From the NCBI GenBank assembly GCA_028713045.1, contig JAQTOY010000002.1, forward strand, positions 60 through 64,059: a DNA stretch of 64,000 nucleotides. Reading direction: 5' to 3'. The notes under the pieces are model-generated. The model saw nothing but the letters and a program-made list of their open reading frames with translations. It made no database searches and was not told where the DNA came from. Shown here piece after piece: positions 20,116 through 57,589 of this stretch; position 1 is the stretch's first letter, and every line of letters starts with the position of its first letter. This stretch comes from Candidatus Nanoarchaeia archaeon (GTDB taxonomy: Archaea; Nanobdellota; Nanobdellia; Pacearchaeales; GW2011-AR1). The position numbers were made by a program, and so were the translations under genes.

Positions 20116-23100
20116 CTAATCCTCCCCTAATAGAAGCTGTTTTGGAGCTAGTTGAATTCTCCGCCCACTTTCAACTTTTTCTAGATATCTATCCAATAAC
20201 CCGGGGTCTAAATTAAATTCTGCTTCAATTCTTTTTCCAACTCTAGTCAATAATTCTCTTGTCCTGTCAGGTCCATAATAATCAACAGTTCTTGCATAGA
20301 TGCATGAATGATCAAATTCTACTCTATCATAAATATGTTCATCTCCGGACATTCTTTTTAATAATCTTCTTTCCTGTTTACTTAGCCTTCCAAAAGTGTT
20401 CTTATCAACCTGCCCAATTAAAAATAATTGGCCATCATAAGCACCAGACTCATATTGAGGGTATAGCCTAAAGCCATTTTCAACTTGCTCTAATCTATGA
20501 TTTCCCTGAATATTTACTGGAACTCCCAAACCTCTTAACATCTCTATTTCACTTCTTACATCAATTGCTTGAGTATATGATAAATAAACAGGTTGTGGAT
20601 TGGCTATACAAACAGAGACTTTTTTATGCCTCGGTTCTTCTTTTAATATTGTTATTGGAATTCCTTTTTTTACCAAAGCTTCAACCTGGCTGTCAATGAA
20701 ATGCTGATCATGATGTATTCCTAAAAAATCTAAATGTAAATATTCTCCTAAGGAAATTACAATTCTCCTATCATTGTTATCGCGATAATGCTCCTTATCA
20801 ACGCTTGCATTTAAATAATAATTAGATTGAGATAAGGGGTATAATGGAACTCTGCCCAAAGAAGCTAATAAATCTTTTTCCGGCAGTCTTTCTCTTAAAT
20901 AAAAAAACTGCCTGTTTCTTGGATCATCTTTGTTCATTAAAGCTATTTCCTCCAATAAAAACAATCCGCATTTTTCCAAATCAACATCTTTAGGAGTTAT
21001 GCATAATTTCATAACATCTTTGCATCCATCAGGTTCATCTTTTATCCAAGTTCTTCCGTAAGTTTTTGCTTTTTCAGGTTGCTTTCTTTTTCTCTCTCTG
21101 TCCTCTGCATAAGCATTATTTATGGCTAATCGAACATTTCCACCAGTTTCCAAACATCCTTCTAACATTCTTCCAACTTCCCATTCACTAAAATATTTTC
21201 TCTTTTCACCTGATGCAGCTTCTTCAACCATTTCAGCAACTTGAGTTAAAGCTCCCTGAGGTCCTTCTCTTAAACCAAGCGTAGCAGCTAAAATAAGGTT
21301 AGAAACTTCCATTGCTTCTGCAAAATCAACTCCATCTCCTTCTTTAAAACCTTGTAATCTTCCAAGAACATCTAAATAATTCGGTAATCTTCCAGTTCCA
21401 CCTCTTGCTGCTATTAACATTCTCTGCCCTAAACTTGTTTGAAATGGATTAGTCTTTGGCCGTGTTCTTGAAGCGATTATGTCATCAATTGCCCTGGAAA
21501 TTAATGGATTATTATGTGAATGTTTTAAAACAAATTTACCAGCATCCTCGTGGGAATAACCAAAAGATAATAACGGCCCCATAACAAATTCATCCAATCT
21601 TCCCATTAAAGAACTATAATCTTCACCTGGTTTGATTAAAGGAGCTTGTTCAAGTTCGTTTTCCCAATTTGTTTCGCGATAGCGACCACGTTCTTCTGAA
21701 GGTCTGTTTATTAACTGTTGACGTTTTCTTTCTTTTGCTTTTTGTTTTTCATGTTGGGCATATTCATCTAATTTAGCTTCTAAAAATTCTCTTGCATGTA
21801 ATGCAGTTTCTTTAAATCTATCTCCTGCAGATTCCAATACTTCGGTTTGATGACGTAAAAAATAATAAACTAATTCTAATTCAAAACTATTGCATACTTG
21901 CCTATAACCATCAAGACCAACTACTTCTAAACTGCTAAAAGCGACAGAATTTTGTTCCTCTGGATTTGTCATATTCGTATAAAGATTAGCTCCCCACTCT
22001 GCCACATCACCATGATCATGTATTTCTGTTAAATAACCCTCAAGACCTCTTCCATTGTAAGTTCTTCCTCTAACTCTTCTAAAATAATATTTATCTGATA
22101 ATTCAGGCATTCTTAATTCAGCGTCAGCTCTTTGACTGCCAAATAAAACTAATTCCTCCGGAGACATTGAAAGCAATTTTGCAGATTCACCAATCATAAC
22201 ATCTGCAAATTTCCTATAATATCTGATTTCCTTTAATAATTCTCTTAATTTTGGCAGAACACTTGGAGCCAAATCTTTTTGTCTTACCCCTCCAATTTTT
22301 AAAACATCGTCTAAAGAAACTCCGTAATCTTCGTTCATGCATTCAACTACCTCGCGAGGTGATGCTCCAGTTTCTAACAATGATCTGTACTGCCTTCGCA
22401 ATAATCCCTGATGCTTAATATGGTGCGTGTAGGTTCTAGGATCCTCTCCATATTTTACTAGTGTTGGAACTACAACCTCCTCCACTTCGTCATCTCTCAT
22501 TAATGGTGTGGAGGTTACATCTTCCATATCCCAGCAACCGTTTAACCTGACAAGTAATAAATCATCAATAAAACCTCTGATTTTTGTAAAATACCTATCT
22601 TGATTTTTTCTAGCGTAACGCCGAGTTTTCCCATCAAATCCTTTGATAAAAAATACTCTCTGCTCGTAATTTCCATCGGTTCTTTCAATCACTCCTAATC
22701 TTGATTTTGGGGGCAGAATATTTCCTAAATTTGGAACACAGGAATGCTCGCCTGTTTTCGGATGATTTGGATATTCAACACAATAAACCAAATCTCCAAC
22801 ATTTTCAGGTAGTAAGGAATTCTTTTTAAATGGATTGGCATTTCTAAATCCTCCGTGCAATCCATCATGAACAAATTTTCTGAATGATTCCATGGAATCA
22901 ATAACTCTTGTTTGAACATGCATTCTTGTTGATAAATCAGGTTCATCACATTCTGCATACGGGCCGCATCCTATTTCAACACGAACTTTTCCAGCTTCAT
23001 CCCAGTCAGGAAAAGCAAGTCCAGTAACCGGCCCACCATTAACAAAAACTACGTCCTTATGTTCGGTCCCTCTTCTTGGCGAGTATTTAGGAAAAGGGAA

Positions 23101-23322
23101 TTCTTCGACAAAAACCAATTTTTCTTCTAAATCTCGGATAATACTCATTGCCAATTCATAATATAAATTTCCTTCAGACATTTGAACTAGTCTGGAATGG
23201 TTATCATCTATTTCAGCTCTTCTTTGGAATAAATCCACATCCTGCAATCTAAGTGTAGAATTTAACAAATTTCTTGCTAAAGGGTCTGTTGTTATTTGCA
23301 GTAGACTATTCAGGTTTGCCAT
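20116..23322 (-). CDS. large protein of unknown function (1068 aa), last gene of the Ubl-type operon
   Basis: Uninterrupted 3.2-kb ORF. 17-nt overlap with the upstream gene. No P-loop or other motif recognised. Confidence 0.75.
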   Translation of the reverse strand: MANLNSLLQITTDPLARNLLNSTLRLQDVDLFQRRAEIDDNHSRLVQMSEGNLYYELAMSIIRDLEEKLVFVEEFPFPKYSPRRGTEHKDVVFVNGGPVTGLAFPDWDEAGKVRVEIGCGPYAECDEPDLSTRMHVQTRVIDSMESFRKFVHDGLHGGFRNANPFKKNSLLPENVGDLVYCVEYPNHPKTGEHSCVPNLGNILPPKSRLGVIERTDGNYEQRVFFIKGFDGKTRRYARKNQDRYFTKIRGFIDDLLLVRLNGCWDMEDVTSTPLMRDDEVEEVVVPTLVKYGEDPRTYTHHIKHQGLLRRQYRSLLETGASPREVVECMNEDYGVSLDDVLKIGGVRQKDLAPSVLPKLRELLKEIRYYRKFADVMIGESAKLLSMSPEELVLFGSQRADAELRMPELSDKYYFRRVRGRTYNGRGLEGYLTEIHDHGDVAEWGANLYTNMTNPEEQNSVAFSSLEVVGLDGYRQVCNSFELELVYYFLRHQTEVLESAGDRFKETALHAREFLEAKLDEYAQHEKQKAKERKRQQLINRPSEERGRYRETNWENELEQAPLIKPGEDYSSLMGRLDEFVMGPLLSFGYSHEDAGKFVLKHSHNNPLISRAIDDIIASRTRPKTNPFQTSLGQRMLIAARGGTGRLPNYLDVLGRLQGFKEGDGVDFAEAMEVSNLILAATLGLREGPQGALTQVAEMVEEAASGEKRKYFSEWEVGRMLEGCLETGGNVRLAINNAYAEDRERKRKQPEKAKTYGRTWIKDEPDGCKDVMKLCITPKDVDLEKCGLFLLEEIALMNKDDPRNRQFFYLRERLPEKDLLASLGRVPLYPLSQSNYYLNASVDKEHYRDNNDRRIVISLGEYLHLDFLGIHHDQHFIDSQVEALVKKGIPITILKEEPRHKKVSVCIANPQPVYLSYTQAIDVRSEIEMLRGLGVPVNIQGNHRLEQVENGFRLYPQYESGAYDGQLFLIGQVDKNTFGRLSKQERRLLKRMSGDEHIYDRVEFDHSCIYARTVDYYGPDRTRELLTRVGKRIEAEFNLDPGLLDRYLEKVESGRRIQLAPKQLLLGED

Positions 23323-24217
23323 CCGAAGGTAAAAGATTAAGTTTTAATAAATCTGCTCCGGCCCGAGTTAAATCATAGATTCCAAGCACCTTCATAGAAT
23401 ATAAAATTTTTAATCTTGATGGAATCTCCGGCATTCTAACAATCTCTGACAATCTAAATTGTTCTCTGAAAGGTTCATCCAATAAATCGTGCACTACTGC
23501 CGAACATAAGGTATTGCATAAATCATTATGATCAACAATTTCTTCTCTTAATCTCCTGTTCCTTAACAATGGAAATTTTTGTATTAATAATTCTCCGACT
23601 TGAATTAATTGGCCACTGACTTCACAATCTAGAATCGACAGCTTTTCTTCGCTTCTTCTTCTAACCCATTCTTCCAAGGCAGTATCTAAATCATGACCAT
23701 ATCCTGAGACAAGTGCTGCTAGATTCTCACCTTGCAAGGATTTTCTTGCAAATCTTACTTCACCTTGGTATAGTGCTGTGCTTGCTTCAACAAACCGGTC
23801 GTATAATACCTCAAAATGATGATAAGAATGACTTGAATTTGTTAAATAACTCATAACATTATCCAAAAAAGTACAAACCAATGTTCCTTGAAGTTTTTCA
23901 GGAGGAATTCTATCAGGAACTTCCTCTCTCCCATATCTTTCTTTTTCTTCATCTAAATCAAATAATCCTCGTAATAATTTTACAACCCCTGAACTATATT
24001 CATCAGTTCCAGATTGGTAATCTAAATACTTGTCAAATCTTTTAGTTGCTTCATCAATTTTTCTAAAGCGTGTTCTATTAACTAGAACCCGAGCAACATA
24101 TTCTGGTATAGTAACTCTGCTTCTAGGCAAGGTAACAACTTCTCTAAAAACTCCAGGGCCACTTTCCTCATCTAAAAAATCCCTAAACAATAATTCCCCA
24201 GGATTCTGATCGTTCAT
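23306..24217 (-). CDS. protein of unknown function (303 aa), operon gene 5
   Basis: Intact ORF starting 3 nt after the E1-like gene. Probably helical, no motif recognised. Confidence 0.65.
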   Translation of the reverse strand: MNDQNPGELLFRDFLDEESGPGVFREVVTLPRSRVTIPEYVARVLVNRTRFRKIDEATKRFDKYLDYQSGTDEYSSGVVKLLRGLFDLDEEKERYGREEVPDRIPPEKLQGTLVCTFLDNVMSYLTNSSHSYHHFEVLYDRFVEASTALYQGEVRFARKSLQGENLAALVSGYGHDLDTALEEWVRRRSEEKLSILDCEVSGQLIQVGELLIQKFPLLRNRRLREEIVDHNDLCNTLCSAVVHDLLDEPFREQFRLSEIVRMPEIPSRLKILYSMKVLGIYDLTRAGADLLKLNLLPSDGKPE

Positions 24218-24220
24218 TTT

Positions 24221-25774
24221 TTATTTTACCCTCCTTAAAATATCACCTTCCTCTTCATACCATTGGTTAAAAGGTTTTCCTTTTACCCTTATTTCTTCAC
24301 CTTGCGAGTTTATAATTCTTTCTACTTCGCAACTTTTAAGGGGTACAAAATATGGAACCTTGGTCCCAAGGTCATTATCCGGACTTACTCTAACATATTC
24401 AAATCTTGGGTGCTCTTTCATGCTGTATTTAAACTGCCCCTGTAATGGATGTCCTGAAAACAGATTAACAGTTTCTCCTGCTAAAATAGCAGCACACAAT
24501 GACGTGATTAGAGCTTGAGAGGGTAATACTTCTGGATCTGTGCAATGTCTATGAGTTCGTCTGATTGAATCTAAATATGCCTGTTTTAAAAAATCATATT
24601 GATACAACATTGACGATGTTTGTCCAGGCGCATAAGCATATACTACAAGACTGGAATCATCGCAAGCTCCAAGCAATAACGGAATCCTGTGCTGTTGAGA
24701 GTAATTAATGACTCTCATCTGATTGTCAAATCCATCAACAGCACTCACTAATAAATCAACTTCAGGAAAATTGCTTTTTTCATCAAATCTTTCGGTTTGT
24801 GCATGATATCTTGTTCTTGTTTTTCTTCTGTTAAAATGCCTTCTTGCTGCAACTGCCTTATATTCTCCCTCTTCATCAACGCAATGCGGTGCACGTGAAA
24901 AATTAGAGATTTCCCATTTATCAAAGTCTCTTATATAGAAACTCCGAAATCCTAAATCATGAGTTGCTTCAAGATACATAAGTCCAATAGCCCCACAGCC
25001 AATAACTCCAATTCTTTTTTCTAATGGATTAAAACTTGACCAATCAAAATTATTTTCATGAGAGGTTCTTGAATCTGATAATAGATTCCAGGTAATTACC
25101 TCATCATGTTTAAGTTCTTGGCCATAATCAAATGATCTTCTTACTATTTCTGATAATCCCAGTGCCGCGCATGCCATTGAGGTAATTGTTGTTTGAGGTC
25201 TTCTATTTAATCGTCTTTGAGGCATTAAAAATTCAGGTCTAATTGCAGCTTGTGAATTATAATCTACAATCCTTAATTCATGGAAATTAGAGGCCCCTAA
25301 AACCAATAAAGTATTTTTTTCATCAGCAGATCTAAATGGCAAGGATTTAGAATTCACTCCCCATGATCTTGCAAGATTTTGCAATAAATATCTTTTTTCT
25401 TCCCAATCATTGCCTGAATGAAAAGCATAATTCATGAAAAATCCCATATTCTGAACTGTTTCAGTCCTAATTCCAGAACATAATCCTCCGACGCTAATAT
25501 TTGGGTTTAATCCTTGCACAATCTCACCAATTCTAGTTGCAATCTCTTCTCCTCTGCTAATCTCTTGGCCCATAAAACTCTGGCTATTTCTTGCTCTTTC
25601 ATCATTTGCGCAGATTATCCTGCCGATTTCCAAGCAACTTCCAAGCAAGGTTGCATACCTTGATGTTAACCCTCTTCCAAGAGTGTATAATAATGCTTCA
25701 TCTAAGGTTTCTTGATTCCAACCTTTAATCAGTTGTTGCCTAGCGATTCTATTGCTAACCATCCAAACCTCCAA
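24221..25774 (-). CDS. ThiF/MoeB/E1-like adenylyltransferase with a ~250-aa N-terminal extension
   Basis: RIGVIGCGAIGLMYLE...IRDFDKWEISNFSRAP (GxGxxG plus DxD..SN..R, codons 24893-25009). Then YKAVAARR, AVDGFDNQMR and SLCAAILAGETVNLFSG. Confidence 0.8.
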   Translation of the reverse strand: MEVWMVSNRIARQQLIKGWNQETLDEALLYTLGRGLTSRYATLLGSCLEIGRIICANDERARNSQSFMGQEISRGEEIATRIGEIVQGLNPNISVGGLCSGIRTETVQNMGFFMNYAFHSGNDWEEKRYLLQNLARSWGVNSKSLPFRSADEKNTLLVLGASNFHELRIVDYNSQAAIRPEFLMPQRRLNRRPQTTITSMACAALGLSEIVRRSFDYGQELKHDEVITWNLLSDSRTSHENNFDWSSFNPLEKRIGVIGCGAIGLMYLEATHDLGFRSFYIRDFDKWEISNFSRAPHCVDEEGEYKAVAARRHFNRRKTRTRYHAQTERFDEKSNFPEVDLLVSAVDGFDNQMRVINYSQQHRIPLLLGACDDSSLVVYAYAPGQTSSMLYQYDFLKQAYLDSIRRTHRHCTDPEVLPSQALITSLCAAILAGETVNLFSGHPLQGQFKYSMKEHPRFEYVRVSPDNDLGTKVPYFVPLKSCEVERIINSQGEEIRVKGKPFNQWYEEEGDILRRVK

Positions 25775-26957
25775 TATCTCTTTTTTCTAATCTTTCTTTT
25801 AATTCCATAGCATTACAATAACTTGGAGAAACCCCTCTTAAAATTCCATCAACAGAATTATACTGCTGTTCATATCCGCTTCCATTAACAAATGGATTGC
25901 CAAATAAATCCAGGACCCTTTGAACTGTTTGAACATCTGCCATATTAGCTTTTGGATCCGATCTGGCAAAAGTCATAAAGTGATTAAGCAATCTAAATAA
26001 ATCTCCTCCAGTCATAGGCAATTTTCTTTCCAAATCTCTTAGCAACTGAGGATCATGATAAAATATTGATGAATGCTGAATTGACCGAGGTATAACCGTA
26101 GGCCTTTTTATTTCTGGAATGACCAGTGGCTTTACATGATAGTTAATCTCCGCTCTTATCATTTCTGAATCAAATTCTGAAACAACATCATCTTCAACTT
26201 TTAATTCTAATCCATCCCGCTTTTCTAATAATCTATAACTTTCAGGGCCTCCATTGAAACAGTATTTTTTATATTCTCCAAGTCCAAACCAAGGTTCTTC
26301 AATACCTCTGCAATAAATTAAAAACAAGCTGTAACCTTGGTTTACTCTAAAATAAATTTTTGGTTCTCCTCTATCTCTGAGAACAACGCCGTCTTGAGAT
26401 TTTAATGCTTCTCGAATATTATCTCTAGTATCAACTTGTGCAAATTCATTGCTGACATCAGCCCAGCCATAAAAATTCTGATAAACCCAGTTATCTCCTG
26501 TAAATTTTTTAAAAGTATCCAAATCTACATGAGAGGGCTCTAAAAATTCTCCTGGATGGATATGAGTTATTCCAAATAATCTCAATGGATTTTCTCTCTT
26601 TTCCTCATTTATTGAATCTAATCTTCGTAAGAATTCATCCGCACTTGCAGCAGAATAATCTACAAGCCCCGGACTAACTAATTGATGCATTAGCATTGCA
26701 TCTTCGATTCTATTGGGGGATGACTCCCCGTATACATTCATAAATCCAACTTCAAATCTTCTTAAGTAAGGAAAATGTTCATCCATAACAGAAACATATT
26801 CCTTGATTTTTCTATCAACACTTCTTGGTAAAACCCATTTTAATGGAGTTTGAATAAGAGTTTCAGCTGTTTCTGATTTATGGCCAACCACACTTTCTCC
26901 CCTTACTATTGCATCCATTGCTTCATCCAAATCATCAACAACTAATGCGTGTTTCAT
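25755..26957 (-). CDS. JAMM/MPN+ (JAB) metalloprotease-domain protein with a ~250-aa C-terminal extension
   Basis: E69 in RRFEVGFMNVYG, then THIHPGEFLEPSHVDLD, which matches HxHx7Sx2D (codons 26523-26564). Confidence 0.8.
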   Translation of the reverse strand: MKHALVVDDLDEAMDAIVRGESVVGHKSETAETLIQTPLKWVLPRSVDRKIKEYVSVMDEHFPYLRRFEVGFMNVYGESSPNRIEDAMLMHQLVSPGLVDYSAASADEFLRRLDSINEEKRENPLRLFGITHIHPGEFLEPSHVDLDTFKKFTGDNWVYQNFYGWADVSNEFAQVDTRDNIREALKSQDGVVLRDRGEPKIYFRVNQGYSLFLIYCRGIEEPWFGLGEYKKYCFNGGPESYRLLEKRDGLELKVEDDVVSEFDSEMIRAEINYHVKPLVIPEIKRPTVIPRSIQHSSIFYHDPQLLRDLERKLPMTGGDLFRLLNHFMTFARSDPKANMADVQTVQRVLDLFGNPFVNGSGYEQQYNSVDGILRGVSPSYCNAMELKERLEKRDIGGLDG

Positions 26958-28342
26958 TGTTGAACACCTCGGGTTTCTGTTAAATCATGAATATTAGTTT
27001 TAATTAAACCCCTTCTGCCAACTTCGGCTTCAGTTATTGGAGTCATCCCTTCAATATTTCTATGATGAGAACCAGGACTCATTCCATTTTGCAGAGTTCC
27101 AACTCCATCTATCATTATATAATCAACAACATTTTCCGTCCAGGGTCTTGTTGATGTAGGTTTATAATCTAAAGGACCACAAAATGTTTGTGGATGACCT
27201 AAACGAAATTCATGATTAACAAACAAAAAATCTCCATTAACCTGAATTTTAGAAACTTCTACTCCTAAATCCGAATACTTCAGAAAAACTCCAACCTCGG
27301 GAGGATTTTCAAACGGATAATATAAATTCGGATCGGTTAAAGATCTCATTGCATAAGGAGGAGGTTTGATATAAACATAAAGACATTGATGTTTTCTGTC
27401 TTCTCCATAATCTCGTTCTCCTGGAAATGCATATGGAAAAAAATGAATTCCACTGTTTTCATGGCAAATATCAGTTTCTGATAATTTTACATTTCCTTTT
27501 AATCTAGAGCAAAATTCAATGAATTCATCAACTCTTTTTGCATTCAATGTTCTTGCTGCTTCATTTAAATAATTTTGAGTTCTAAACCCCTGGTATTTTT
27601 TAACATATTCTTCTGGAGTTATTTCCCCTCGTTTTCTGAATAATCTTCTATTGCCTCTTTTATCAACAACTTCAACATTTCCAACAAATTTTCTTGGCTC
27701 TAATTCATAAATTACAGGCTTAACTTCATCATGACGAAATCCAGGTTTTTCATAGATTAATAAATTCGGATTAAAATCAAAACTATCTGATAATTCTAAA
27801 TGCCTGTCAATGCCAGTTCTTTCTTCAAAATCCTGGTCTGCCTCAGCCTGTTCTGCCTGTTCTTTTTTCAATAAATCTGATATGCTTCTTCTGACCATTT
27901 GCCTTGTTAATCTTCTTTTTGAAGTGCTCTCTGAAATCATTCCTAAAAATTCTCTTTTTCTTAATTCCAATAATTCGCTTCTTGGAGTAGTTGCAATCCG
28001 GCTGTCAAATTCCATTAAAGCAGGCAAAACATCACTAAAAACATGAAATAACAATAAACTCTGGTCTTTTGACATTTCTATATCCATTAAGGTTTGAAAT
28101 GCCCTTTCAACTGCCTTAGCCTTAAATTCATTAATATTAAGAGCATTGCAAACAGAATCGCAATGGCAAATATTTTCAAGACGTCCTTCATAAGACAATG
28201 ACCCGAGAACTTTGCCTTCAACTTTTAAAACCCCAGAGTTAGGAATTCTTGAAGAATGCAGAAGATAACAATGGCCATTTAAAATTATTCCATGATGACC
28301 GATTAATCTTTCAAAACCATAAAATTGTAATTTGTCAATCAT
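26954..28342 (-). CDS. protein with a C-terminal E2/UBC-like (or UEV/RWD-like) region; N-terminal part unknown
   Basis: CLYVYIKPPP...YYPFENPPEVGVFLK resembles the canonical E2 segment F.L.I.FP.DYPFKPPKV.F. It is followed by GHPQTFCGP (His-Pro plus Cys). The spacing is atypical. Confidence 0.45.
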   Translation of the reverse strand: MIDKLQFYGFERLIGHHGIILNGHCYLLHSSRIPNSGVLKVEGKVLGSLSYEGRLENICHCDSVCNALNINEFKAKAVERAFQTLMDIEMSKDQSLLLFHVFSDVLPALMEFDSRIATTPRSELLELRKREFLGMISESTSKRRLTRQMVRRSISDLLKKEQAEQAEADQDFEERTGIDRHLELSDSFDFNPNLLIYEKPGFRHDEVKPVIYELEPRKFVGNVEVVDKRGNRRLFRKRGEITPEEYVKKYQGFRTQNYLNEAARTLNAKRVDEFIEFCSRLKGNVKLSETDICHENSGIHFFPYAFPGERDYGEDRKHQCLYVYIKPPPYAMRSLTDPNLYYPFENPPEVGVFLKYSDLGVEVSKIQVNGDFLFVNHEFRLGHPQTFCGPLDYKPTSTRPWTENVVDYIMIDGVGTLQNGMSPGSHHRNIEGMTPITEAEVGRRGLIKTNIHDLTETRGVQQ

Positions 28343-28396
28343 ATGAGGAGCTTAGGATAATATTTAAGTCCCTCTTTTAAAACCTAATGCCCTAAA

Positions 28397-30022
28397 TCAA
28401 CCAGTCGGTCTTCCAGCAGTAGCAGTTGCAGTGGTTGTATAGGCAGTATGCTTTTTCCTTTCTGGAGGGGGCGAAGGTTTATCTCTATCTTTTGGTTTAT
28501 CAGGCTCTGTTATTGTTAACTCACTTTTATATTCTGTAAACACCGTTCTGAATGGAACAGTTAAATCATATCTTTGACCATTAAAAAATACAGTATGGTC
28601 TCCTCTTTGTCTTTTTAAAAATTCTTTTGCATTGTCACGGTCGCGTGGCTGCGTAAAATGAGATTCATCAGCTAAATATTCATAAAAATCCCCGACAGTC
28701 TGAGGTAAAGCATCTTCTGGAAAAACAATACCTAACGCGGCTTGTCCTAACTTAATTCTAACTCCATAATGTTTTACTTCAGGAATATCCTCTCCAGGTT
28801 TGCTTGTAGCAGTTTGTCCAACAACGCCAGGAGTTGCAACAGCAGCTGCTGAAGAATCTGCAAGAGTTGATTCAAGTCCTTTTCTTCCAACAGGAGTTCT
28901 ACTGCTTGCATCATCTAATGAAACCTGACTAGTTAAATCAATACTAGGCCCGCTAATGCCGGAATCTGTAGTTTGAGTTAATTTTGGTAAAACTGGTTCA
29001 TAACCTTTTTCTATTTGTGTTTCCTTAAAAGCACCTGCGGCTTTTTCTAATTCCTTTAACTTAGGTAAAAATTCCGCTCTAGATTTAGCAACTCTTGGAG
29101 AAACTTGTTCAAATCTTAATCTAGCAGGATTTCTTTCCGGAAGTCTTTTTACAGAGGAGTTTGTAAGCGCTTTTTCAGCATCTTTACTCTGTTGAGTATA
29201 ACTGGTATTTGCAGTTTGATAAGTTTGAACAACTGCCTCAGAAGCTAAATATGCAGGAGTTAATAAACTTCCAAAAGCAGCTGTACTTTCTTCAAGTGTT
29301 CTTACAAAATTCTCTAAAGTTATTGTTGCATCAACAACTTCAACAACGAGCTTAGGTTCAACAGTTGTTTTGATAAGTTTCGGTTTTCTTTGAGGCGGTT
29401 GTGCAGGAGCAGTAGGTTTAGCAGGAGATGCACTAGGTTTAGCTGAAACTCCTAACTCTTTTGCAGCATCTTCAAGAGAAAGAAGTGAGCCATTATAAAG
29501 CCCTGCTCTAGATAATTCTGAATCAATTTTAGCATATTGGAATTTGCTAGTATCCGGTTTAGTTTTTTGTCCTCTTAAGAATAATCTTCTGCCTTGTTTT
29601 AAATCCACTGAATAATCTCTTCCAGCCTCTCTTGGAGCATCAACCTTTATCAATTTAACAATAGTTCCAGTTTGATAATGAGCAGGACCTGAGCCATATT
29701 TCGCAGCAACCGCCTTTGCAAGTTCGTTTGGAACAGAAGCAACAGCAACTCTTGCAGGTTGGGGTGCCTTAACCTCGTCATAATCAACAGCAAGTTCTTG
29801 AGGTAATAATGCTTCAACATAATGATAATTTCTTACAGTATCTGCTGATTTCATTCCCTCAGCATCATGGGCGATTTTCTCTAAATTCACTCTTGCAGTA
29901 CGAATACCTTGGTTTCCTAGAAATCCAGCCTGACATTGAGAATATAATTCAGCAAGAGATTTTGAATGCGGATATCCTTGCATTGGTTTTCCATTAGGTC
30001 CTGTAATAACTTGCTGAGACAT
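28397..30022 (-). CDS. 541-aa low-complexity protein with a ubiquitin-like segment near the C-terminus and a terminal Gly; first gene of the operon
   Basis: HTVFFNGQRYDLTVPFRTVFTEYKSELTITE aligns with ubiquitin [31 protein letters not shown]. The ORF ends ...ATAGRPTG-stop. A/P/S/T-rich linkers. Confidence 0.6.
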   Translation of the reverse strand: MSQQVITGPNGKPMQGYPHSKSLAELYSQCQAGFLGNQGIRTARVNLEKIAHDAEGMKSADTVRNYHYVEALLPQELAVDYDEVKAPQPARVAVASVPNELAKAVAAKYGSGPAHYQTGTIVKLIKVDAPREAGRDYSVDLKQGRRLFLRGQKTKPDTSKFQYAKIDSELSRAGLYNGSLLSLEDAAKELGVSAKPSASPAKPTAPAQPPQRKPKLIKTTVEPKLVVEVVDATITLENFVRTLEESTAAFGSLLTPAYLASEAVVQTYQTANTSYTQQSKDAEKALTNSSVKRLPERNPARLRFEQVSPRVAKSRAEFLPKLKELEKAAGAFKETQIEKGYEPVLPKLTQTTDSGISGPSIDLTSQVSLDDASSRTPVGRKGLESTLADSSAAAVATPGVVGQTATSKPGEDIPEVKHYGVRIKLGQAALGIVFPEDALPQTVGDFYEYLADESHFTQPRDRDNAKEFLKRQRGDHTVFFNGQRYDLTVPFRTVFTEYKSELTITEPDKPKDRDKPSPPPERKKHTAYTTTATATAGRPTG

Positions 30023-30122: not shown

Positions 30123-30662
30123 ATGCAAAAGAAACTTCATCAAGGAGCAAGATGGTCATTTAGAATAAGGGCTTATCTTACAATGATATTTTTAGCTTTC
30201 TTTGTAAGCTGGTTCATAGCTCCACTTTTTGCAGTTATTTCTTCATTATTATTTGGTAAAAATACGGTTCCCGCAGTAATCTTTGCAATAATTTTTTTCG
30301 GAGTTTTTTATATCATATTAATAATAGTGATAGGAGAGATTTATGCAAGAATGGCCTATAATCGATGGTTCTACGAATTTACAGATGGGCAGTTAAGGAT
30401 GGAAAGAGGAATAATCTGGAAAAGATATTCCAACCTTCCATATGAAAGAGTGCAAAATGTTGATATAACAAGAGGAATCTTGGCAAGAATGCTCGGTTTT
30501 TCAACAGTCCATATACAAACCGCAGGTTTTTCCTACACTCCTAATGCAAGAGGAATGGGTTCAGAGGGTTATATCCCTGCAGTTACAATACCTGAAGCAG
30601 AACATATTAGAGAATTCTTGATGAAAAAGATTTCCAAGAATGGAAGAAATCAGGGATTGTGA
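30123..30662 (+). CDS. bacterial-PH (bPH_2 / YdbS-YdbT-like) membrane protein
   Basis: Two TM helices, then FTDGQLRMERGIIWKRYSNLPYERVQNVDITRGILARMLGFSTVHIQTAG. Confidence 0.7.
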   Translation: MQKKLHQGARWSFRIRAYLTMIFLAFFVSWFIAPLFAVISSLLFGKNTVPAVIFAIIFFGVFYIILIIVIGEIYARMAYNRWFYEFTDGQLRMERGIIWKRYSNLPYERVQNVDITRGILARMLGFSTVHIQTAGFSYTPNARGMGSEGYIPAVTIPEAEHIREFLMKKISKNGRNQGL

Positions 30663-54502: not shown

Positions 54503-57500
54503 TTATCCCCCACACCCTGATAATTCAACATAACCGCATTTGCAGTATTCTGCACAATGTCCTTTTTTAATCATCCTGCTTCCGCAGGATGGACAATATC
54601 TTCCAGCTTCTTCTAAATCAGATTTAGAATTTTTTGTTTCTTCTACATTCGCATCTTTAAAATTTTCTTCCCTAATTTCGCTTTTAATAATTATTTCTTT
54701 TTGAACTTGTTCTTTTTCACTTAAGTTGCTAAACTTATTCTCAGGTTCTTTATCCATAAATTGTTTTTCAAGAAAATTTCCAATATAATCTACAATCGAA
54801 GAAGCAGTTTTTATGTCCTTTCTACCTTCAATAACAATACCAAGGGGTTCAAATCTCTGACTTTTAAATTTGCTTATTATAGTTTTTAATGGAACTCCAT
54901 ATTGCAGAGCCATAGAAGTCATATTTGCAAGGCTACCCATCAAACCTCCTACAGTGCTACCTTCTTTTGACATGGTTATAAACAATTCTCCCAAATTTCC
55001 GTCGTCATATAGTCCCGCAGTTAAATAACCTTCATGTCCGGCGATATTAAACTTGTGTGTTATAGAATTTCTAGTTAAAGGGAGTTTTCTTCTTACAGGG
55101 ATCCTTACAATTTCTTCTTTTTTCTTTGTAAAACTTAATGGCTGCATTCTTTTACTTCCGTCTCTGTAAATCGCAACAGCTTTTAATCCAAGTTTCCACG
55201 CTTCAAGATAAATATTTTCAACGTCTTCAACAGTTGCATCATTTGGCATGTTAACTGTTTTTGAGATTGCTCCGGATAAAAATGGCTGGACAGCGGCCAT
55301 CATTTTTATGTGCCCCATTGTAGAAATTGTTCTTTTTCCATGGACCGGTTTGTTTGAACAATCAAAGATAGCCAAATGCTCTTCTTTTATTCCACTTCCC
55401 TCCGCAGTTTCTTTTTTTTCAATATATTCTAAAATATTTTTTATCTGTTCTTCATTGTATCCTAATTTTTGGAGTGCAAATTTTACAGTGCCATTGACTA
55501 TTTTTAAAATACCCCCTTCTGCAAGAAGTTTTGTTTGAACTAATCCAATCTCAGGCTCTATTCCTTTTGTATCACAATCCATCATAAAACCTATTGTTCC
55601 AGTAGGAGCAAGCACGGTTACTTGAGCATTTCTAAACCCATATTTTTCCCCTCTTTTAAGGACATTATCCCAAATTTTTTCAGAAGCATCATAAACTTCT
55701 TCATATCCCCTTGGAATTTTATTCCTGTCAATTTTTTTAAATGCTTCAACATGCATCCTTATGACCTTGAGCATGGGTTCTCTGTTTTTTTCAAATTCCT
55801 TAAAAGTTCCTAATTTTTCAGCCAGTTCAGTAGAGGTTTCATAAGCCTTTGCAGTCATTAACGAGGTTATAATTGCTGCAATTATCCTGGCTTCATCAGA
55901 ATCATAAGCGAATCCTAACGACATTATTAAAGAGCCAAGATTAGCATAACCCATTCCAAGAGGACGAAATTTGTGAGAATTCTCCGCAATCTTCATTGTA
56001 GGAAAACTAGAATTATCAAATTCTAAATCCTGGGCAATTGCCGTGAATCTTATTACATTTTCAAAATCTTTAACATTAAAACTTCCATCCATGTTTACAA
56101 ACGCTCTTAAATTTAAAGAAGCTAAATTGCACGAACTATTATCAATAAAGTTATATTCTGAACAAGGATTGCTTGAATTAATTCTTCCAGAATTCGGGCA
56201 GGTATGCCATCGGTTCATAGTATCATCAAATTGGATTCCAGGATCACCGCATTTGTGTGTGCCTTCTGCAATTAATCTGAATAATTCTCTTGCTTTGTAT
56301 TTAGGCATTTCATTTATCATTTCTTTGTTATGAACCGGAATTGTTTGCCATTCCAAATCATTTTCGACTGCTCTCATAAAAGCATCTCCGGCTCTCACTG
56401 AAATATTAACATTTTGAAAGGATACTGTTTCTATAGCCTCTCTTCCATCAATTCCATTGTCCATCAATAGTTCAATTTTTTTCTGTTCTTTTACTTTTGA
56501 TTCAATAAATTCTTTGATATCTGGATGAGTCATTTTTAGAGAATTCATTTTTGCAGCCCTTCTTGTTTTTCCTCCAGATTTTACAATTCCTGCAACTTTA
56601 TCATAAAAGACCAGATATTGTAAGGGTCCGGAAGGCTTTCCTCCTCCGGATAGTCTTTCCCTTGCGCTTCTTAAAGTTGAAAGGTCTGTCCCTGTTCCAG
56701 AACCATGCTTAAACAGCATTGCTTCTCTTCTAGCTAAATCCATTATATCCTCCATGTTATCCTGAACATCTTGGATAAAACATGCAGATGTTTGCGGATA
56801 AAGATGATTTTGTCCGGGAGGAATTTCAATAGCCCTCCCATTGATTAAAGCAAAACCTTCTTTTTTTTCATTACTCCTAGCAGATTCATAAATATCTGTT
56901 CCAACATTAAACCAAACCGGAGAATTAAAAGCCATTCGCTGGGTTAATGTCAAATAAGCCAATTCATTTTTAAAAATTTCTGCTTCTTTTTCATCAAAAT
57001 AACCATTTTTTATTCCCCATTTTGCAAACGTTTGACTTACTCTGTTAATAACCTGCTTAAAAGAATTTTCTCTTTCCATTTTTCTTACGTCTCCATAAAA
57101 ATATCTGGAAGAGATTATTTTACGCGCCAGATTGCTAAAATATGCAGGAAATTCAACATCCTTTTGTACAAAAAGAGGTTTCCCCATGTCATCAGATATT
57201 TGTATATCTGTTTTTTCCCATTGGATAGGAAGAAAATTTTCATCCTTAGTAAAATATCTCTCTATTTTTAATTTTTCATTTTTGAATTTATTATAACCCT
57301 TAAACGCATTTGAAACTTCAAGATATCCTGCTTCGATTGAAGAATCAATAACTATCTGTTTTACTTCGGTAAAATATGGAACATTCCCATTAAATCTTTC
57401 TCCTATCTTTGTCTTGACCCTAGAATAAATATCTTCTATAATCTCCTCTTTATCATCAAATTGTGTTTCATCAACAGCCCGATTTATAGCTTTTTTTATT

Positions 57501-57589
57501 TTTTCAGGGTTGAATTCATCAATTCTTCCATCTCTTTTTTTAATATGTAATGGCATTAACATTTTAAATCTAAACTTGCCTAAGAGCAA
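54503..57589 (-). CDS. nrdJ: class II (adenosylcobalamin-dependent) ribonucleotide reductase with N-terminal ATP-cone and C-terminal zinc ribbon
   Basis: ATP-cone HIKKRDGRIDEFNPEKIKKAI. Catalytic blocks NPCSEYNFIDNSSCNLASLNL and GFRNAQVTVLAPTGTIG. C-terminal CPSCG...C..C.CG..ELSGCGG. The start is probably the Met at 57562 or 57556. Confidence 0.9.
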   Translation of the reverse strand: MLLGKFRFKMLMPLHIKKRDGRIDEFNPEKIKKAINRAVDETQFDDKEEIIEDIYSRVKTKIGERFNGNVPYFTEVKQIVIDSSIEAGYLEVSNAFKGYNKFKNEKLKIERYFTKDENFLPIQWEKTDIQISDDMGKPLFVQKDVEFPAYFSNLARKIISSRYFYGDVRKMERENSFKQVINRVSQTFAKWGIKNGYFDEKEAEIFKNELAYLTLTQRMAFNSPVWFNVGTDIYESARSNEKKEGFALINGRAIEIPPGQNHLYPQTSACFIQDVQDNMEDIMDLARREAMLFKHGSGTGTDLSTLRSARERLSGGGKPSGPLQYLVFYDKVAGIVKSGGKTRRAAKMNSLKMTHPDIKEFIESKVKEQKKIELLMDNGIDGREAIETVSFQNVNISVRAGDAFMRAVENDLEWQTIPVHNKEMINEMPKYKARELFRLIAEGTHKCGDPGIQFDDTMNRWHTCPNSGRINSSNPCSEYNFIDNSSCNLASLNLRAFVNMDGSFNVKDFENVIRFTAIAQDLEFDNSSFPTMKIAENSHKFRPLGMGYANLGSLIMSLGFAYDSDEARIIAAIITSLMTAKAYETSTELAEKLGTFKEFEKNREPMLKVIRMHVEAFKKIDRNKIPRGYEEVYDASEKIWDNVLKRGEKYGFRNAQVTVLAPTGTIGFMMDCDTKGIEPEIGLVQTKLLAEGGILKIVNGTVKFALQKLGYNEEQIKNILEYIEKKETAEGSGIKEEHLAIFDCSNKPVHGKRTISTMGHIKMMAAVQPFLSGAISKTVNMPNDATVEDVENIYLEAWKLGLKAVAIYRDGSKRMQPLSFTKKKEEIVRIPVRRKLPLTRNSITHKFNIAGHEGYLTAGLYDDGNLGELFITMSKEGSTVGGLMGSLANMTSMALQYGVPLKTIISKFKSQRFEPLGIVIEGRKDIKTASSIVDYIGNFLEKQFMDKEPENKFSNLSEKEQVQKEIIIKSEIREENFKDANVEETKNSKSDLEEAGRYCPSCGSRMIKKGHCAEYCKCGYVELSGCGG

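Follow-up and report, generated by a model that had tools for sequence, protein, structure and literature searches.

The DNA analysed here (the window) is a stretch of 64,000 nucleotides from a metagenome-assembled genome of Candidatus Nanoarchaeia, a DPANN lineage (contig JAQTOY010000002.1 of assembly GCA_028713045.1). It is low-GC (~33%) chromosomal DNA, and its gene content is archaeal (RNA polymerase A and B, EF-1alpha, EF-2, SMC, RNase HII, ribonucleotide reductase). Six co-directional genes, here called A to F, form a cassette in which A comes first and B to F overlap or are only a few bases apart. Gene A encodes a protein of 541 residues with a predicted ubiquitin-like (Ubl) domain at its carboxy-terminus, and further genes of the cassette encode a JAB/JAMM metallopeptidase and a ThiF-type activating enzyme (E1). 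The question that we address is whether protein A could be the precursor of a large ubiquitin-like modifier.

In the full-length AlphaFold 2 (AF2) model, protein A starts with helices and a small beta-barrel; then come a coiled coil and a disordered linker (residues 340-411), and the Ubl domain forms the C-terminus. A preliminary description of this DNA, made from the letters alone, had already proposed a ubiquitin-like beta-grasp of about 90 residues at this end of the protein, and the AF2 predictions, together with the dominance of one fold class among the Foldseek matches, speak for it. In the AF2 model of residues 410-541 (mean predicted local distance difference test score (pLDDT) 82.4, predicted TM-score 0.71, pLDDT of the core 88-96; all five models confident, at 76.8-82.4), strand b1 spans residues 415-425 and b2 428-435, the helix 443-451, an extra helix 459-473 and b3 477-480, followed by a short b4, a 3/10 turn (491-494) and b5 (496-506). 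This is the order of elements in ubiquitin with one helix inserted. Hydrophobic core positions of the domain are invariant across orthologues, and the full-length model agrees on the C-terminal fold. Among the first 50 Foldseek matches in the PDB, 35 or more are beta-grasps of the Ub, SUMO, NEDD8, UBL, DIX or RA type, as classed by reading their descriptions. The best is NEDD8 (3dbr_I, probability 0.97, TMt 0.57), and the others include Smt3/SUMO, the SLD of UAF1, the UBLs of FAF1, TONSL, Dsk2, Bag1, Sharpin and NIRF, ubiquitin itself, EccD, DIX and RA domains. A search of BFVD returns viral ubiquitins and SUMO-like domains, which belong to the same fold class, and the Foldseek list of the full-length model contains ubiquitin-family folds as well. 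As no single E-value is significant, the assignment draws on class enrichment and topology; on this basis, a beta-grasp is very likely the fold of the predicted domain.

Relatives of protein A are few. An exhaustive HMMER search among 1.84 billion representative proteins found five of them, and a sixth came from a related locus (L006). The family amounts to six clusters in the exhaustive search, with carrier proteins of 432-541 residues. A word-index homologue search with full-length protein A recovered only protein A, and the same kind of search with the C-terminal alignment (A2) recovered nothing, not even the known members. Searches of protein A against Pfam, NCBIfam, PADLOC, PHROGs and PDB profiles gave no match.

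The alignments of these relatives change the view of the protein's end. Behind b5, protein A continues for 35 residues, which the preliminary description had considered as a possible flexible tail. They do not form one simply flexible stretch: about 13 residues of the loop at 507-520 (PDKPKDRDKPSPP) are an insertion in the window protein only, with a gap in all orthologues (alignments A1 and A2), and residues 521-536 are predicted to form an extra strand, b6, which is present in the full-length model too and aligns with the orthologue tails. Directly after b6 stands Gly537, the only invariant column of the tail. In five of the six family proteins this column is the first G of a Gly-Gly (QGG, RGG or AGG), the window protein being the exception, and across the family the conserved Gly or Gly-Gly is followed by 2-13 variable residues. 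With a slash behind the conserved part, and with related loci numbered L001 to L007, the tails read ...ATAG/RPTG (window), ...SQGG/KLGDLLYRMYLKT (L001), ...PQGG/SNA (L002), ...TRGG/SNGGLTDLLYR (L003), ...TQGG/GVG (L004/L007) and ...PAGG/LA (L006).

The features of protein A given in the preliminary description, namely its open reading frame (ORF), its end (...ERKKHTAYTTTATATAGRPTG, then the stop codon), the terminal Gly541, the assignment of residues 417-506 to nucleotides 28505-28774 and the absence of Gly-Gly, all agree with the ORF list and our own translation, and the strings cited from it (KHYGVRIKLGQAALGIVFPED..., TVFFNGQRYDL..., SELTITE, RRLFLRGQKTKPD...GSLLSLE) are all found in the protein. 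The importance attached to the terminal glycine needs revision, however. The last residue varies among the orthologues (T, A, R, G and A), and the invariant residue is Gly537, four positions upstream. The outcome that the preliminary description had named as counting against it, orthologues with variable non-Gly ends, is thus partly seen for the terminal residue. What the alignment offers instead is the conserved Gly or Gly-Gly just upstream of the end, and with it the Ubl idea survives in precursor form. As a conserved glycine with a variable extension resembles a ubiquitin precursor, Gly537 is the likelier mature (adenylated) C-terminus, and we weight it against Gly541 by roughly 2:1. This fits the alternative that had been raised alongside, that the JAB enzyme trims the tail, since the orthologue tails show a pattern consistent with such processing.

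Table 1. Features of the six-gene cassette and of its surroundings (positions in the window; strand in brackets; residue numbers refer to the respective protein).
Feature	Position	Strand	Basis or remarks
Gene A, carrier protein, 541 aa	28397..30022	(-)	ORF list and own translation; layout from AF2
All-beta small barrel of A, residues 121-181	29480..29662	(-)	AF2: five strands, no helix between, pLDDT 72-82
Long helical, coiled-coil-like region of A, residues 223-338	29009..29356	(-)	AF2 helices 223-253, 262-286, 299-338, pLDDT 77-90
Predicted ubiquitin-like beta-grasp of A, residues 415-506	28505..28780	(-)	AF2 with alignment A2, Foldseek
Pro/Lys-rich loop of A, residues 507-520 (PDKPKDRDKPSPPP)	28463..28504	(-)	pLDDT ~58-60; gap in orthologues
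Extra strand b6 of A, residues 521-536 (ERKKHTAYTTTATATA)	28415..28462	(-)	Predicted; DSSP 112-127 of the 132-aa model, pLDDT ~78-80
Gly537 of A, invariant	28412..28414	(-)	Only invariant tail column (G128 of A2), directly after b6
Residues 538-541 of A (RPTG), variable extension, probable propeptide	28400..28411	(-)	pLDDT 45; ends in Gly541
Codon of Gly541 (GGT)	28400..28402	(-)	
Stop codon of A	28397..28399	(-)	
Spacer between A and B, 54 nt	28343..28396		A/T-rich (...GGTTTTAAAAGAGGGACTTAAATATTATCC...)
Gene B, 462 aa, candidate E2	26954..28342	(-)	UBC-like motif, invariant Cys, position as BilB
Cys388 of B	27179..27181	(-)	Invariant
Gene C, 400 aa, JAB/JAMM metallopeptidase	25755..26957	(-)	JAMM motif, PADLOC JAB models
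JAMM motif of C	26523..26564	(-)	H132-I-H134-PGEFLEP-S142-HV-D145
Gene D, E1, two ThiF-like halves	24221..25762	(-)	Pfam ThiF 7.4e-19
Active adenylation domain of D	~24377-25018	(-)	GCGAIG, D279/D281, N287/R290, K302, D343
Cys407 of D	24542..24544	(-)	Invariant; in the short loop that follows these motifs
Gene E, 303 aa, conserved cassette protein	23306..24217	(-)	Position kept in L002, L004, L006
Gene F, 1068 aa, conserved cassette protein	20116..23322	(-)	Start overlaps end of E
bPH_2 membrane protein	30123-30662	(+)	Divergent neighbour; two transmembrane segments (Pfam)
Largest RNA polymerase subunit, 1184 aa	44154-47708	(-)	Single ORF with Rpb1 domains 1-5
Class II ribonucleotide reductase	54503-57589	(-)	B12-dependent; ATP-cone, C-terminal TSCPD

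The two long extensions behind the Gly-Gly, in L001 (L001:441-1883) and L003 (L003:2885-4183), share the motif DLLYR. The domains that bear it are only ~45% identical, and the relative in L004 is without such an extension. A propeptide of the DLLYR type may have a function of its own.

At the amino-terminus of protein A, a short helical region (residues 20-72 in the full-length model) precedes the barrel, whose predicted strands cover residues 121-123, 137-140, 146-149, 163-171 and 175-181. The preliminary description had suspected a second, tandem beta-grasp at residues 144-184. AF2 predicts only strands there, with no helix between them, as in a small beta-barrel, and the weak Foldseek neighbours are of the OB/SH3 type (the OB domain of RsgA, SH3); we therefore rejected this candidate. 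The long helical region matches syntaxin/SNARE-type bundles, and it is from this coiled coil that the mostly helical-bundle matches in the Foldseek list of the full-length model come.

Also supported is that protein A shares its operon with an E1 of the ThiF type and a JAB/JAMM peptidase. In the protein of gene C, the JAMM motif is joined by an upstream Glu69, and five orthologues all retain E69, H132, H134, S142 and D145. Several members of the family match PADLOC JAB models (best E 5e-4), and weak matches to AfJAMM and BRCC36 fall on the JAMM motif. Five of the six JAB proteins end in Gly or Ala (...GGLDG, ...GESNA, ...CQNA, ...GGQDA, ...KNGA), the sixth, that of L006, in ...KNGK. As gene C at its 3' end overlaps with the beginning of the E1 gene, the terminal Gly or Ala may be a coding constraint; self-conjugation of the JAB peptidase is a further possibility.

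The E1 of gene D appears to be a single chain with two ThiF-like halves, since both halves of the family profile have matches in the PDB: E. coli ThiF aligns at positions 6-129 (E 2e-4), and the C-terminal half finds TcdA, MccB, UBA3, Cap2, MoeB, UBA5 and SAE2, with many E1s aligning at positions 235-375. The nucleotide motif of the first half is degenerate by our own reading of the alignment. In the active adenylation domain, the ATP and Mg motifs (GxGxxG, DxD, NxxR, the Lys and the Mg-binding Asp) are invariant, and so is the cysteine in the loop behind these motifs. The ORF list starts gene D with a TTG at 25774; in the alignment, the N-termini of the orthologues (MRRIQRQTLI...) begin at the ATG at 25762, and this ATG is the likelier start.

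Between the Ubl gene and these two enzymes lies gene B. Its invariant columns (alignments A3 and A8) are YPFxNPPxVGV (residues 342-352), FC388G and W401, a pattern that by eye parallels the flap, catalytic cysteine and following tryptophan of UBC proteins (YPFKPPKV...ICLD...W). We lean towards regarding the gene B product as a very divergent E2, as its motif resemblance suggests. In the spacer between A and B, the one junction of the cassette where the genes stand clearly apart, an internal archaeal TATA element or an attenuator could set the ratio of tag to enzymes; the promoter and terminator scan around gene A was of the bacterial type and is uninformative for an archaeon. Of the last two genes, in which no domain was recognised, E gave no match in Pfam, NCBIfam, PADLOC, PHROGs or the PDB, and F gave none in NCBIfam or PADLOC and no convincing match in the PDB or Pfam. 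Orthologues of F, with 952-1050 residues, hold the same cassette position.

All six genes, overlapping or tightly spaced and in the same order, are found in L002, L004/L007 and L006, and the short contigs L001 and L003 contain the first three or four. The Ubl domain and its operon partners occur together in every cassette recovered. The cassette is very rare: it was found in about six lineages, mostly of DPANN-type archaea. The gene B family had four matches, a scan of GTDB genomes with the single E1 sequence gave nothing, and alignment-based scans with the E1 gave one locus each in genomes and metagenomes. Scans of viral contigs with the E1 and gene B alignments, as well as PHROGs, did not place the cassette on viruses, and for want of support we rejected an origin from viruses or prophages.

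The flanks of the cassette vary and, where they can be identified, consist of archaeal housekeeping genes: aEF-1beta, RtcA and Trm1 in L004, and a histone-like ORF (our own reading of the translation), PurA/PurB/IMPDH, aIF2alpha and PheRS-beta in L006. The complete cassette of L002 (JBHPEW010000076.1, GCA_042576465.1) lies on a 22-kb contig that was binned as "candidate division KSB1 bacterium". Its flanking ORFs had no Pfam matches, and all other identifiable hosts are archaeal; L002 is either a case of mis-binning or one of bacterial occurrence or transfer. In the window, the divergent neighbour of gene A encodes a membrane protein with a bacterial PH domain, which is not kept beside the cassette in the other loci. 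Two genes further away may be mentioned. The largest RNA polymerase subunit, which most archaea encode in separate A' and A'' genes, appears in the window to be fused in a single ORF. The class II ribonucleotide reductase has an ordinary housekeeping look and is listed for context only.

Together, the predicted fold, the invariant glycine followed by variable extensions, the invariant catalytic motifs of the E1 and JAB proteins and the Bil-like gene order suggest that gene A encodes the precursor of a large ubiquitin-like modifier, a "cargo-Ubl", for an E1/JAB conjugation system. We put the probability of this reading at about 0.6. The conjugation cycle is taken over by analogy with Type II BilABCD, and it is from this analogy that we infer the cleavage site, the E2 activity, the conjugation itself and the targets. 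The JAB peptidase of gene C would remove the extension and expose Gly537, which the tandem-ThiF E1 of gene D would adenylate and then bind as a thioester on its loop cysteine, Cys407. The tag would be handed to Cys388 of the gene B product, the probable very divergent E2, and the whole 537-residue protein would be joined to lysines of target proteins. The JAB enzyme could also reverse the linkage, and the products of genes E and F might be adaptors or targets. Coiled coil and barrel may be delivered as cargo, or they may oligomerise the tag, as has been suggested for CC-Ubl1 of Bil and Bub operons (PMC11601603).

Several points weigh against this model. Tests of the gene B product for an E2 gave nothing significant, whether with Pfam, NCBIfam, PADLOC, profile searches of the PDB or hhalign, whose P values with four human E2s are ~0.2-0.3, and it is a resemblance of motifs that identifies the candidate; the sole local match does lie where it would be expected, in the Trp and helix after the Cys. 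Ubiquitin likeness of protein A at the level of sequence is not significant either. In hhalign, only the piece TVFFNGQRYDLTVPF (16 columns) of the six-member family aligns with a small profile of Ub, NEDD8, SUMO and ISG15 (P=0.039), and Pfam yields no ubiquitin-type model for protein A at E<=0.1. The alignments are shallow, the one behind the model of residues 410-541 having only five sequences, and the Foldseek statistics of the Ubl domain are weak throughout, with E-values of 0.01-0.3 overall and 0.03-0.3 in the PDB list, none being below 0.01. In the ungapped alignment, Arg538 of the window protein occupies the position of the orthologues' second Gly. Four of the six proteins stop three to four residues past the Gly-Gly with a terminal Gly or Ala, so that the last residue rather than Gly537 could be the reactive one. 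The whole reading is computational, built on sequences and predicted structures.

The terminal Gly or Ala of these four proteins leads to the most serious rival, in line with the preliminary description, a conjugation system of the same kind in which Gly541 is adenylated untrimmed, the upstream Gly-Gly merely provides flexibility, and the JAB enzyme serves only for deconjugation and for processing of the two DLLYR-type extensions. The window (G), L002 (A), L004 (G) and L006 (A) end at the same aligned column, where the two longer orthologues also have a Gly (KLG/DLLY..., SNG/GLTDLLYR). The free tails of 4-5 residues after the last strand (GRPTG, GGSNA, GGGVG) have the same length as the tail of ubiquitin after its b5, and CD-NTases of the cyclic oligonucleotide-based antiphage signalling system (CBASS) are conjugated via a terminal Gly or Ala, which the preliminary description had cited likewise. 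We nevertheless find this version doubtful, since it leaves a near-universal Gly-Gly without a direct role, since the tail of L006 is one residue shorter (GGLA), and since Type II Bil systems set the precedent of a conserved Gly with a dispensable short extension that is removed by JAB.

A further rival retains the beta-grasp and drops the conjugation: the domain would serve as a docking site that brings protein A to the E1/JAB complex or to another partner, and the E1 would act on a different substrate, in sulfur transfer or peptide modification, as ThiF, MoeB, MccB and TcdA do. TcdA and MccB, which the E1 domain matches best by sequence in the PDB, are indeed not protein-conjugating E1s, the negative E2 tests of gene B fit as well, and most eukaryotic UBLs in the Foldseek list (TONSL, Dsk2, FAF1, Bag1) are not conjugated. 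However, an invariant Gly or Gly-Gly at the extreme C-terminus, right after the fold and before short variable extensions, speaks against mere docking, in every cassette the Ubl and E1 genes enclose two others, for a dedicated JAB peptidase and for an invariant-Cys protein, and scans of the cassette with Pfam and NCBIfam found neither a small ThiS/MoaD-like gene nor a sulfurtransferase domain. We thus consider this explanation improbable. A sulfur carrier of the ThiS/MoaD type was also ranked low, given the JAB gene, the extensions after the Gly-Gly and the size of the carrier. Finally, the beta-grasp might not be real but a product of too shallow an alignment and of patterns matched by eye, with another alpha/beta fold or partial disorder in its place and a coincidental adjacency to E1 and JAB genes. 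Besides the statistics and the small alignment mentioned above, query-normalised TM-scores of only 0.3-0.4 (PDB and BFVD) and the absence of Pfam and HMM support would agree with this. Yet the five AF2 models are confident down to their core blocks, the elements follow exactly the order bb-a-bb-3/10-b, the PDB and BFVD libraries and the full-length model all lead to ubiquitin-family folds, and Ubl domain and operon partners stay together in every cassette, which makes an artefact very improbable.

Cassettes with Ubl, E2, JAB and E1 genes have recently been shown to work in bacteria, mostly in antiphage defence, and have reopened the question of the origin of eukaryotic ubiquitination. If the modifier model is true, a cassette of the same logic and without detectable sequence relationship extends this machinery to DPANN-type archaea with their tiny genomes, which would be a new domain and a new lineage for it, and its tandem-ThiF E1, archaeal and in a single chain, could be set beside the eukaryotic E1s. 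The modifier, if conjugated, is a large multi-domain protein and would be a new kind of tag. What makes the cassette notable is the archaeal (DPANN) host, the extreme sequence divergence, the large putative cargo-Ubl and the tandem E1, and six conserved "hypothetical" genes gain names. The cassette spans ~12.7 kb; with a typical DPANN genome assumed to be ~1 Mb, this is more than 1% of the genome. Its share of the genome and its setting among core genes suggest a function that is important to the cell. Going further, one can tentatively imagine an undescribed, archaea-specific (DPANN-type) ubiquitination-like pathway that is independent, at the family level, of Bil, Bub, CBASS, the small archaeal modifier proteins (SAMPs) and Caldiarchaeum, in which a scaffold of 50-60 kDa would be the tag, attached via a six-stranded Ubl, with a single-chain, pseudo-dimeric, eukaryote-like E1, a divergent E2 and two large partners, and with a cellular role, such as in proteostasis or symbiont-host relations, and not one in antiviral defence, at which the housekeeping neighbourhood in three genomes hints. 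This wider proposal is speculative and clearly less probable than the modifier model itself.

A limited literature search on DPANN and ubiquitin-like proteins found no paper that describes such a cassette. Sampylation is not known to involve an E2, and the SAMP genes are as a rule not grouped in a single cassette. With the SAMP/UbaA/HvJAMM1 system (PMC4443979, PMC4895103), the present one shares the archaeal host, a beta-grasp (here a predicted one) that bears Gly-Gly at its C-terminus, an E1 of the ThiF type and a JAMM peptidase, which in sampylation (HvJAMM1-type) cleaves after Gly. SAMPs are small free proteins, whereas here the carrier has 541 residues, the E1 is a tandem and an invariant-Cys protein is interposed; the NCBIfam model for UbaA scores 19.1 bits against a cut-off of 450. 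The eukaryote-like Caldiarchaeum operon with Ub, E1, E2, RING-E3 and Rpn11 (PMC3082918, PMC5654768) is likewise archaeal and brings together genes for a Ubl, an E1, a JAMM peptidase and a protein like an E2 (in our case a candidate). Its components are recognisable homologues of eukaryotic Ub, UBC and RING proteins, in contrast to our cassette, where Pfam recognises only the ThiF domain and no RING protein was found.

Among bacterial systems, Type II CBASS is reached by sequence, as gene D gives PADLOC matches to the Cap2 "E1-E2" and PDB matches to Cap2, and members of the JAB family match Cap3-type models. In both cases a large functional protein, not a small free tag, is or would be joined via its own C-terminus. 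Unlike in CBASS, no CD-NTase and no effector was recognised among the cassette genes (Pfam, PADLOC, NCBIfam), the region N-terminal to the E1 domain is ThiF-like and not E2-like, and the C-terminus of the carrier, other than that of CD-NTases, follows a predicted beta-grasp domain. In Type I Bub operons, a JAB enzyme processes the precursor (Ye et al., PMC11601596). Bub E1 and E2 lack the catalytic Cys and use oxyester chemistry, and a serine protease of the DUF6527 family is encoded alongside them (PMC11601596). Unlike Bub (6E/DUF6527), genes D and B keep an invariant Cys, and Pfam found no PF20137 or DUF6527 match.

There remains Type II BilABCD (Chambers et al., PMC10557695; Gong et al., PMC11601603). 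Its hosts are bacterial and not archaeal (DPANN-type), and in the cassette described here the carrier is larger (432-541 aa) and its Ubl has an extra helix and a sixth strand, the E1 has no evident separate CYS domain, two conserved large genes (E and F) are added, and the surroundings are housekeeping genes and not defence islands. Membership in the Bil family is not supported by sequence: Pfam finds PF00899 as the only match on gene D and no PF14459 on the N-terminus of the E1, the PADLOC matches are restricted to the Cap2-type and JAB ones, and no BilD chain is among the PDB matches of gene D. The likenesses lie in the order of genes (Ubl, putative E2, JAB, E1), in an E1 that appears to have two adenylation-type halves in one chain, and in a conserved Gly with a short non-conserved extension, AG/A in BilA of E. 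aridi and AG/RPTG in the window, where trimming by JAB would take place. This BilA ends in Ala-Gly-Ala (PMC10557695). Protein A resembles some Bil Ubls in having an N-terminal coiled coil before a single beta-grasp, an architecture known in both Bil and Bub operons (PMC11601603). In function and layout, Type II BilABCD is therefore the closest analogue of the archaeal cassette.

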